24,774 nt of DNA, taken from positions 1 to 24,774 of IMG/VR virus record IMGVR_UViG_2778261448_000010; one strand, written 5' to 3'. Positions 19,627 to 21,971 of the stretch are shown here, one piece after another. Numbering within the stretch: the stretch's first letter is position 1; each line of letters opens with the position of its first letter. The notes beneath the pieces are model-generated. The model was not told the DNA's origin and made no database searches. It was given only the letters and a program-made list of their open reading frames with translations. This DNA comes from a virus. Its lineage: Duplodnaviria; Heunggongvirae; Uroviricota; Caudoviricetes. The translations under genes were made by a program, and so were the position numbers.

Positions 19627-20064
19627 TCATAGAAGGCATTGCGTCCTGATGTATTCCTGCAAGTAGTTAACCTGCGCGGTTATCCTGTCGATTCCACTTC
19701 GGAGACGGTAATAATTGAGTTCAGCATCTGCTGTAAGTCTTGGGCTTTCTCCATCGCCCATGCTGCTGGCTCCGGTCGTTGACTTTGTACAGGTGGCGGC
19801 GACTTGCAGGCGCTTACGACCAGCAGAAACATCAGCACGGAGACTTTCGATAGTCGCGTTAGCATCAGCAAGCTCCTTTGTGTATCTGGCGTCGAGTTCT
19901 GCTACATCACGTTGACGCTTCTGCATGTCAGCGATGATGTACGTGGCCTTATCACGCTGCTCTTTGTAGGCGATTGCGTTATCACGGTAATGATTAACAG
20001 CCCATGACAGACAGACGATGATGCAAATAACCAGAGCGGAGATAATCGCGGTTACTCTGCTCAT
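19627..20064 (-). CDS. Rz: Rz i-spanin
   Basis: The 145-aa [40 protein letters not shown]... is near-identical to the lambda Rz N-terminus as I recall it. Its start overlaps the R stop (ATGA). Confidence 0.9.
19680..19871 (-). CDS. Rz1: Rz1 o-spanin lipoprotein embedded in Rz (+1 frame)
   Basis: The 63-aa ORF lies wholly inside Rz. It has a signal peptide with lipobox LVVSAC followed by a proline-rich segment, as in lambda Rz1. Confidence 0.8.
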
Positions 20065-20537
20065 ACCTCAATCTCTCTGACCGTTCCGCCAGCCTCTTTG
20101 AATTTTGCAATCAGGCTGTCAGCCTTATGCTCGAACTGGCCATAACCAGCGCCCGGCAGTGAAGCCCAGATATTGCTGCAACGGTCGATTGCCTGACGAA
20201 TATCACCGCGGTCAATCATCGGTAAAGCGCCACGTTCCTTAATCTGCTGCAATGCCACAGCGTCCTGGCTTTTCGGAGAGAAATCTTTCAGGACAAGCTG
20301 CTTACGATAGGCATCCCACCAACGGGAAAGAAGCTGATAACGTCCGGCGGCTGTTGATTTGAGTTTTGGGTTTAGCGTGACAAGTTTGCGAGGGTGATCG
20401 GAGTAATCAGTGAATAGCTCTCCGCCAACAATGACGTCATAACCATGATTTCTGGTTTTCTGTCGTCCGTTATCAGTTCCCTCTGACCACGCCAGCATAT
20501 CGAGGAACGCCTTACGTTGATTATTGATTTCCACCAT
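20061..20537 (-). CDS. R: Endolysin R (lambda-type lytic transglycosylase)
   Basis: The 158-aa [62 protein letters not shown]... is essentially identical to lambda R as I recall it. Confidence 0.95.
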
Positions 20538-20844
20538 CTTCTACTCCGGCTTTTTTAGCAGCGAAGCGTTTGATAAGCGAACCAATCGAGTCAGTACCGA
20601 TGTAGCCGATGAACACGCTCGTTATATAAGCGAGATTGCTACTTAGTCCGGCGAAGTCGAGAAGGTCACGAATGAACCAGGCGATAATGGCGCACATCGT
20701 TGCGTCGATTACTGTTTTTGTAAACGCACCGCCATTATATCTGCCGCGAAGGTACGCCATTGCAAACGCAAGGATTGCCCCGATGCCTTGTTCCTTTGCC
20801 GCGAGAATGGCGGCTAACAGGTCATGTTTTTCTGGCATCTTCAT
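20521..20844 (-). CDS. S: Holin S (lambda S107/S105 dual-start)
   Basis: The 107-aa [70 protein letters not shown]... matches lambda S, including the Met1-Lys2-Met3 dual start. RBS GGGGGTAAG lies upstream. Confidence 0.95.
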
Positions 20845-21392
20845 GTCTTACCCCCAGAAGGGGATCTGTTCAAATTAGGAATTATGGATATGGTCGCTTG
20901 AACAAATCCTGGTTACGGTTGATTTGTAACGGGTTTGTTCGTGACCGCATTCATGAGCAAATCATGCGTGGATTGCGCCAACAATACATGCCGCTCATAT
21001 CACGAAGCCCAGCCATTGATGCTGGGTTTTCTTTTTTAAAGCGCACTAGACCACCGTATCCACAGAGTGTCAGCAATGAGTTGGTTAGGTCTGGTTCTTG
21101 GTGGAAGTACGCTTTAAAAAATGGGCTGAGGGTTGTAGACCAAAATACTGAGGTAATGGTAATGGTGAAAAACGGTTTTGCTCTGGGTGGATTTGGCTGT
21201 GGTGGCCGGCGCTGATCTCCGGCTTGTATACAGGCACCTTGTTCTTCCGAAGCTCTCCTGCGCGCATCAGCCTGCGCATTCACCACACCGGAAAGAGCAC
21301 TCAGTTGTACCGGCCAGTTGTGCCACTAAGAAATGCTTTCGCAGACCGTTAAGCTCTTTGCCAGTTCTTTAATGCTCTTACCTGTTGTGCAA

Positions 21393-21436
21393 ACAAAAAA
21401 GCCACCGTTGCAACTTAAGAGTCACTAACGGCAGCT
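21393..21436 (-). terminator. tR'-like terminator of the short late-leader transcript
   Basis: On the minus strand a hairpin (AGCTGCCGTT...AACGGTGGCT, two mismatches) is followed by TTTTTTGTTTG, then by ...GCACAACAGGTAAGAGCATT, which resembles the lambda sequence just downstream of tR'. Confidence 0.55.
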
Positions 21437-21439
21437 TAC

Positions 21440-21476
21440 CCTCTAATTATGGCTAAATGGCTAACTGCATGTCAAG
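21440..21476 (-). promoter_or_regulatory. Putative late promoter P_R' overlapping the Q stop codon
   Basis: On the minus strand: TTGACA (21470-21475), an 18-bp spacer, then CATAAT (21446-21451). The Q stop TAG lies within the spacer. Confidence 0.5.
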
Positions 21477-21971
21477 GCTTTTAACAGCAACATGCTTAAC
21501 TTTCTCAACACGTTTACGCATTTTGAAAGCATTTTGCATTGGTTGGTACAAAACAAATAACGACGCTTTCAGGATGTCGTCAATTTCGTTTCTACAGGTT
21601 GCCAGTGAAGGTTTTCTCCATCCCTCGCCACCACGTCCACACATCTTGCGTGGCTTTGCAGTCGCGTGATAGTAGGATGCAATTGCTCGCTTAGATGAAC
21701 CATGAGCGTAGTAGCTGAGGAGGATGCCAAAGGCTTTCTTGTCAATGTACATGACGGAATCGACGACCTGAGAAATCAACATTCCATCATCATCATTGCA
21801 CATTGGCCTTGTCATAACTCTTCCCGGCTCTACGCTCTCCATGAACTTCGCTATTACGCTGCTCATACGCTTTTCCAGACGACCTGAATAAACCCATGCG
21901 CCCCACAGTTCAAGCCAGCCATTCAGCCACTCGTGCTGTTCTTTGGTGAGGTTTAGTTCTCTTATGCTCAT
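21453..21971 (-). CDS. Q: Late-gene antiterminator Q (phage 82/21-type family)
   Basis: The 172-aa ORF contains the motifs LELWGAW and RPMCNDDDGMLI, resembling Q-family antiterminators of lambdoid prophages. It lies immediately upstream of the late promoter and lysis genes. Confidence 0.7.
   Translation of the reverse strand: MSIRELNLTKEQHEWLNGWLELWGAWVYSGRLEKRMSSVIAKFMESVEPGRVMTRPMCNDDDGMLISQVVDSVMYIDKKAFGILLSYYAHGSSKRAIASYYHATAKPRKMCGRGGEGWRKPSLATCRNEIDDILKASLFVLYQPMQNAFKMRKRVEKVKHVAVKSLDMQLAI

Follow-up and report, generated by a model that had tools for sequence, protein, structure and literature searches.

The window, by which we mean the whole 24,774-nt stretch of DNA analysed, carries on its minus strand a Q antiterminator gene followed by holin, endolysin and Rz genes. 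The Q ORF (21971-21453, minus strand) encodes a 172-aa protein of the Q21 family, matching PF06530 at 1.1e-25, and NinH and RusA are encoded upstream of it. Downstream, on the same strand, lie the lambda-type holin S (20521-20844; PF05106), which is the first late gene and is located ~595 nt downstream of the predicted transcription start, an ORF for the endolysin R (20061-20537) that follows S, and one for Rz (19627-20064) that follows R. HK75 and HK620 have homologues of S and R under the annotations holin and lysozyme. With NinH and RusA upstream and S, R and Rz downstream, the region past Q is where a lambdoid late promoter is canonically found.

At the 3′ end of the Q gene, we detected a putative sigma-70-type promoter that aligns with pR′ of phage 21. 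Its -35 hexamer, TTGACA (21475-21470, minus strand), coincides with the annotated phage 21 pR′ -35 and lies inside the pR′ span annotated in HK75 and Sf6. The -10 hexamer, CATAAT (21451-21446, minus strand), is placed relative to the Q-binding element (QBE) and the sigma-dependent pause element (SDPE) in the same way as the annotated phage 21 -10, AACACT. The 18-bp spacer between both hexamers includes the Q stop codon TAG (21455-21453, minus strand), and the last Q codons overlap the -35 element and the QBE. The spacer also contains a perfect direct repeat, TTAGCCAT TTAGCCAT, with an 8-bp period and in the same register as the two subsites of phage 21. The predicted upstream Q-binding subsite, QBEu (AGTTAGCC; 21466-21459, minus strand), aligns with phage 21 QBEu ATTGAGCA, and the predicted downstream subsite, QBEd (ATTTAGCC; 21458-21451, minus strand), is the counterpart of phage 21 QBEd AATGAGCA; it contains the Q stop and overlaps the first -10 base. 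Alignment to the annotated phage 21 start (position 2031 of our locus L005) predicts transcription from G 21439 (+1, minus strand), 7 nt past the -10. The -10-like SDPE, TAAGCT, occupies 21438-21433 (+2 to +7), the 35-nt tR′ hairpin GCTGCCGTTAGTGACTCTTAAGTTGCAACGGTGGC occupies 21435-21401 (+5 to +39), with its 5′ arm overlapping the SDPE, and the T tract TTTTTTGTTT occupies 21391-21400 (+40 to +49), all on the minus strand; in the latter, TTTTTT at 21400-21395 (+40 to +45) is followed by GTTT.

A sequence-only reading of the window had proposed a minus-strand TTGACA-18-CATAAT promoter straddling the Q stop, a hairpin and U-tract starting a few nucleotides past the start site, a leader of about 45 nt, much shorter than the lambda 6S RNA, and lambda tR′-like sequence downstream. 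These proposals were borne out: TAG falls inside the spacer, the hairpin begins at ~+5 and six T’s come after it, the leader is ~45 nt compared with ~190 nt in lambda, and the first 21 nt past the T tract (TGCACAACAGGTAAGAGCATT) agree fully with the DNA following lambda tR′ and with that of HK75. The proposal that Q acts at an early promoter-proximal pause is likewise supported by the putative pause element at +2 to +7, which is identical to the annotated phage 21 SDPE. Two parts had gone unmentioned, the QBE repeat and TAAGCT, and these are the parts that would make the cassette responsive to Q.

The same reading had described Q as “82/21-type”, of which the 21-type half stands and the 82-type half does not. 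Compared with the solved Q21 (PDB 6jnx/6p18), the window Q gave an E-value of ~1e-91 and ~85% identity overall; residues 3-94 align without a mismatch, and the divergence extends from residue 95 on, including the substitutions H95R and R128N. Lambda Q, Q82 and Q21 constitute three families unrelated in sequence (Yin et al., bioRxiv 10.1101/651190). In Pfam, the window Q matched only PF06530 and DUF1133, with no match to the lambda Q family (PF03589) or to the Q82 family. An 82-type Q was rejected on this basis, and the label should read 21-type rather than 82/21-type. Within Q, on the antisense (plus) strand, TTGCGTGGCTTTGC (21646-21659) fits the pattern TTGYN6TTGY and is followed by GATAGT; this site is homologous to the CII-binding site and the paQ antisense promoter annotated within phage 21 Q.

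In phage 21, two Q21 protomers bind a direct-repeat QBE located between the -35 and -10 elements, and a -10-like pause element is present; the Q21 torus blocks hairpins, 21tR′ being the test terminator (Yin et al., bioRxiv 10.1101/651190; Shi et al., PMC6606751). The phage 21 record OL657228 annotates the -35, both QBE subsites, the -10, the start, the SDPE and a terminator from +3 to +50, with Yin et al. 2019 and Guo et al. 1991 as its sources. The phage 21 terminator and pause assignments used here rest on that annotation and on Yin and Shi 2019; phage 21 is not mentioned in Bird et al. 2016 (PMC5001585). Alignment with the phage 21 late promoter region, a check suggested along with the sequence-only reading, recovered the same order and spacing of the -35, the two 8-bp-period subsites, the -10, the start, TAAGCT, and the hairpin with its T tract. 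From +2 to +45, a segment covering the SDPE, the hairpin and the T tract, both phages are identical base for base, and therefore the pause and termination behaviour of the window leader should match that of phage 21. The two loci differ in other respects. Phage 21 has the -10 AACACT with a 17-bp spacer, whereas the window has CATAAT with 18 bp. The window Q carries 10 extra C-terminal residues, and thus its stop lies inside the QBE, while that of phage 21 Q lies upstream of the -35. Finally, tRNA-Asn/Thr genes come after the terminator in phage 21, in contrast to the lambda-like DNA of the window.

HK75, Sf6, L and ST64T share the Q subtype of the window, with Q proteins 98–99% identical to the window Q (98% for phage L), and they show essentially no differences from the window in the promoter, the repeat, the SDPE or the terminator. 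The HK75 and Sf6 annotations describe pR′ as “nearly identical to phage 21 late promoter” and tR′ as “similar to phage 21 late terminator”. Like the window, HK75 has lambda-like sequence after the T tract, whereas Sf6 and L have tRNA genes after tR′. The lambda pR′-qut-6S-tR′ region is organized by the same logic: the promoter is constitutive and has a Q site in its spacer, the early pause depends on sigma, and a terminator precedes the late genes. It shares with the window homologous S, R and Rz genes as well as the sequence just past tR′ (TGCACAACAGGTAAGAGCATT). However, lambda Q belongs to the unrelated PF03589 family, the lambda leader reaches ~190 nt (6S RNA; last -10 base at 44580, T tract at 44774-44779), and its terminator does not overlap the pause element. 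The window has neither a PF03589 Q nor a ~190-nt leader, and only its DNA past tR′ is lambda-like.

When folded, the leader formed a stem of 15 bp that contains a single bulged A and is capped by a CUUA loop, with a free energy of ~-17.4 kcal/mol; the 61-nt hairpin context reached -21.3 kcal/mol (z = -2.7 vs dinucleotide shuffles). A simple terminator scan with a loop limit of 3–8 nt did not report this hairpin, because the long bulged stem falls outside its loop and stem rules. With the start taken from phage 21 at G 21439, RNA release is predicted around +44 to +47, yielding a terminated leader of ~45 nt. Among 12 diverged relatives with the hairpin-at-+5 architecture, compensatory double changes were found in 5 of the 15 pairs of the RNAalifold stem.

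To place this leader within the family, we considered 62 loci, comprising 56 Q21-family loci from species-representative genomes, 5 phage relatives and phage 21. The sequence TAnnnT followed by GCC is conserved across them, in both of the leader classes that can be distinguished. Class A, with 18 loci including the window and phage 21, has a long hairpin extending from +4/+5 to +38/+41 and a leader of ~45 nt, and the T tract comes directly after the hairpin in all 18. Most of the remaining loci belong to class B, with a compact GC-rich terminator at ~+34 to +73, and in nine non-class-A loci no terminator was detected within +95. Several class B loci (within L087-L146) retain a GCCGTAAGTG..TCTTAGG segment without a T tract. 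The idea that a hairpin so near +1 is unusual or new was rejected, as the phage 21 arrangement is identical and 18 of the 62 family loci share it; a terminator stem close to +1 that overlaps the pause element is a regular, previously annotated variant of the Q21 family.

Other roles can be envisaged for this short RNA. By analogy with StxS, which derives from the pR′ of a Shiga-toxin phage, the ~45-nt leader might also act in trans as a small RNA in lysogens. The pR′-tR′ RNA of Stx phages has such a role, and phage 21 has been noted to make a short late-promoter RNA (Sy et al., PMC7547250); moreover, the leader sequence is extremely conserved and widespread. Against this, the Rfam search (1.6 kb, E up to 1) returned no family for the leader, only a sub-threshold rydB fragment elsewhere, and the leader is almost wholly one closed hairpin with little single-stranded seed, while the pause and terminator functions already explain the conservation. 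We consider an additional regulatory role of this kind unlikely and speculative, and it would supplement the terminator function rather than replace it. Even less probable is that the +5 to +39 hairpin serves mainly as a 5′ leader structure modulating RNA stability or pausing, with the Q-controlled terminator located further downstream. HK620 does annotate a late terminator, ‘tQ’, in the homologous spacer, at the equivalent of window 21142-21116 (minus strand), and most Q21-family members (class B) keep the TAnnnTGCC start but terminate at ~+34 to +73. Nevertheless, the hairpin and its six T’s share every base with the phage 21 element whose terminator annotation comes from experimental work, and a phage 21 fragment (-148 to +214) containing 21tR′ was the terminator template in read-through assays (Shi et al., PMC6606751). 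The hairpin is also annotated as a terminator in HK75 (Tr′) and in Sf6 (tR′), and the T tract accompanies it throughout class A. The hairpin is thus best read as the terminator tR′.

As for the promoter, TTGACA-18 bp-CATAAT matches 11 of the 12 positions of the sigma-70 consensus and is the sole such match on either strand of the 24.8-kb window. At least one match of 11/12 arises, however, in ~31% of first-order Markov resamples of the window, and the hexamer match alone is weak evidence; the case for the promoter rests on position, conservation and homology. Relatives from Pantoea, Yersinia, Edwardsiella and Providencia retain both hexamers, at the Q stop and at conserved distances from the QBE repeat and the SDPE. 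A chance match in the 3′ end of the Q coding sequence, with late transcription starting elsewhere, would fit that resampling frequency in composition-matched sequences of equal size, but it can practically be set aside, given that the arrangement persists from E. coli to Providencia, also where the flanking DNA has diverged, and that the hexamers align with the annotated phage 21 promoter.

The window and phage 21 differ in their QBE sequence. The core hexamer is TTAGCC in both subsites of the window vs TGAGCA in both subsites of phage 21, so that 2 of the 6 positions differ per subsite. In the phage 21 complex, H95, A124, R127 and R128 are positioned to read bases of the direct TGAGCA repeats (Shi et al., PMC6606751). 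The window Q carries R95 and N128 along with TTAGCC, and phage 21 Q carries H95 and R128 along with TGAGCA. The phage L genome paper (PMC8022706) described AATTATCC/ATTTAGCC as the likely QBE of the L protein and expected its specificity to be different from that of Q21. At position 21465 (minus strand), just outside the core hexamer, the window has a G in QBEu (CAGTTAGCC), vs an A (CAATTAGCC or CAATTATCC) in all the relatives examined that carry this type of Q, namely the IMG/VR loci, HK75, Sf6 and phage L. The Q codon is CAG in the window and CAA in these relatives, a synonymous difference.

For each of the 62 loci, we read the residues aligned to Q21 positions 95, 124 and 128 and the repeat located upstream of the -10-like pause element. 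In HK639-type loci and a few others, the hexamer register was set by reading the repeat itself, with a shift of 1–2 nt. At hexamer position 2, a T accompanies N128 in 15 of 15 loci and K128 in the single locus that has it, while a G accompanies R128 in 45 of 46, the ambiguous case (L131) being an Arsenophonus MAG whose repeat is degenerate (TGGACA/TAGCCA) and which lacks a clear pause element. At hexamer position 6, R95 occurs with C in 22 of 23 loci, and the non-arginine residues H, Y, L and I at position 95 occur with A in 39 of 39; these counts are not phylogenetically independent, as the 62 loci correspond to 44 clusters at 90% identity. The exception for R95, L095 from Shimwellia pseudoproteus, has TGAGCA repeats in a promoter otherwise like that of phage 21. 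R124 accompanies TGGACA-type sites in Q21-family loci, and all four hexamer combinations, TTAGCC, TTAGCA, TGAGCC and TGAGCA, are found among the 62 loci. Such a modular residue–base pattern would be hard to explain unless the repeat were the Q target, and we take the repeat as the Q site because its positions 2 and 6 covary with Q residues 128 and 95. From this covariation, we infer that the window Q binds the TTAGCC repeat, and that it would recognize TTAGCC and not TGAGCA because R95 and N128 replace H95 and R128.

These data can be generalized, with somewhat better than even confidence, into a modular code for the Q21 family, in which residue 128 would read hexamer position 2, with arginine paired to G and asparagine or lysine to T. 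In this code, position 6 would be read by residue 95, arginine pairing with C and histidine, tyrosine, leucine or isoleucine with A, and R124 would be associated with TGGACA-type sites; the Qs of the window and of phage 21 would then be mutually non-cross-reacting. If the code holds, the window Q should prefer its own site AGTTAGCCATTTAGCC and Q21 should prefer ATTGAGCAAATGAGCA, and a double swap should exchange their specificities, such that two substitutions could reprogram Q. The late switches of the window and of phage 21 would not cross-react despite having an identical pause element and terminator, and co-resident prophages could control their late operons separately. Only the family-wide code would be new, since a different specificity for the Q subtype of the window had already been suggested in the phage L paper. 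The covariation is a testable by-product of this analysis and could guide the specificity engineering of Q21-type antiterminators.

Taken as a whole, the element is, with a high degree of confidence, the cassette that controls the late genes in a lambdoid phage or prophage of the phage 21 type, with the promoter, the Q site, the pause signal and the terminator all contained in ~85 bases past Q. We infer the start site, the pause, the termination efficiency and the dependence on Q from sequence comparison. In the mechanism that we propose, sigma-70 RNA polymerase would initiate at pR′ near G 21439, probably constitutively, and sigma region 2 would re-bind TAAGCT (+2 to +7), making the polymerase pause within the first 14–20 nt. 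Without Q, the polymerase would escape, transcribe the hairpin and the T tract and release the ~45-nt RNA, so the lysis and morphogenesis genes would remain off. As Q accumulates from the early rightward operon, two protomers would bind AGTTAGCC/ATTTAGCC, exposed in the spacer by promoter escape. The upstream protomer would then form a torus in the RNA exit channel, through which the 5′ end of the RNA would thread. In the Q-modified polymerase, the torus would keep hairpins from forming in the channel, and therefore tR′ and later terminators would be ignored, allowing read-through into S, R, Rz and the remaining late genes.

The cassette is not new: several phage records annotate it, and it represents a late switch of the Q21 type. 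For the annotation of this phage or prophage, its value is that it marks the start of the late operon and assigns the late switch to the phage L/Sf6/HK75 subtype of the Q21 family, with a leader in the compact ~45-nt form and a pause element that belongs to the terminator stem. It is widespread: at ≥80% coverage, it was found in 619 of 5426 complete E. coli genomes (~11%), and it is present in ~100 phage records from Escherichia, Salmonella and Shigella. In IMG/VR, at least 597 stretches encode a relative of the window Q; the best 80 of them have a Q ≥98% identical to it, and the cassette is conserved in these 80 retrieved loci.

The surroundings of the cassette are mosaic. Within the 80 IMG/VR loci, this promoter and QBE occur in combination with each of the two leader classes and each of two downstream sequences, as the T tract of the relatives is followed by lambda-like TGCACAACAGG... 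or by a tRNA-Asn gene. In phage 21, Sf6 and L, the tRNA-Asn gene begins one base past the terminator; no tRNA genes were found in the 24,774-nt window. Since the same promoter and QBE occur with varied leader and downstream sequences, recombination joints would be placed immediately past CATAAT and inside the T tract. The apparent joints in the window are at 21445-21446 and 21391-21400 (minus strand). Ahead of S, 545 bp of spacer are shared with HK620 and HK633 at 98.5% identity. On the plus strand of this HK620/HK633-like region, which separates tR′ from S, a hairpin resembling a terminator, with a T run (GAAGCCCAGCC..GCTGGGTTTTCTTTTTT), was observed at 21004-21030; it opposes the late operon.

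In 14 of the 80 IMG/VR loci with the same Q, promoter and QBE (L019 at 2020-2790, L026, L029, L037 and ten others), an ORF for a 170-aa endonuclease with HNH_3 and AP2 domains comes after the -10. The ORF (2214-2726 in L019) is flanked on one side by the -10 and on the other by a second TAAGCT with the 21-type hairpin. These loci have a different first leader, ATTCACA TATGCT ... AAGCCCACC..GTGGGTTTTTTT, and the arrangement looks like the insertion of a homing endonuclease into the late leader.
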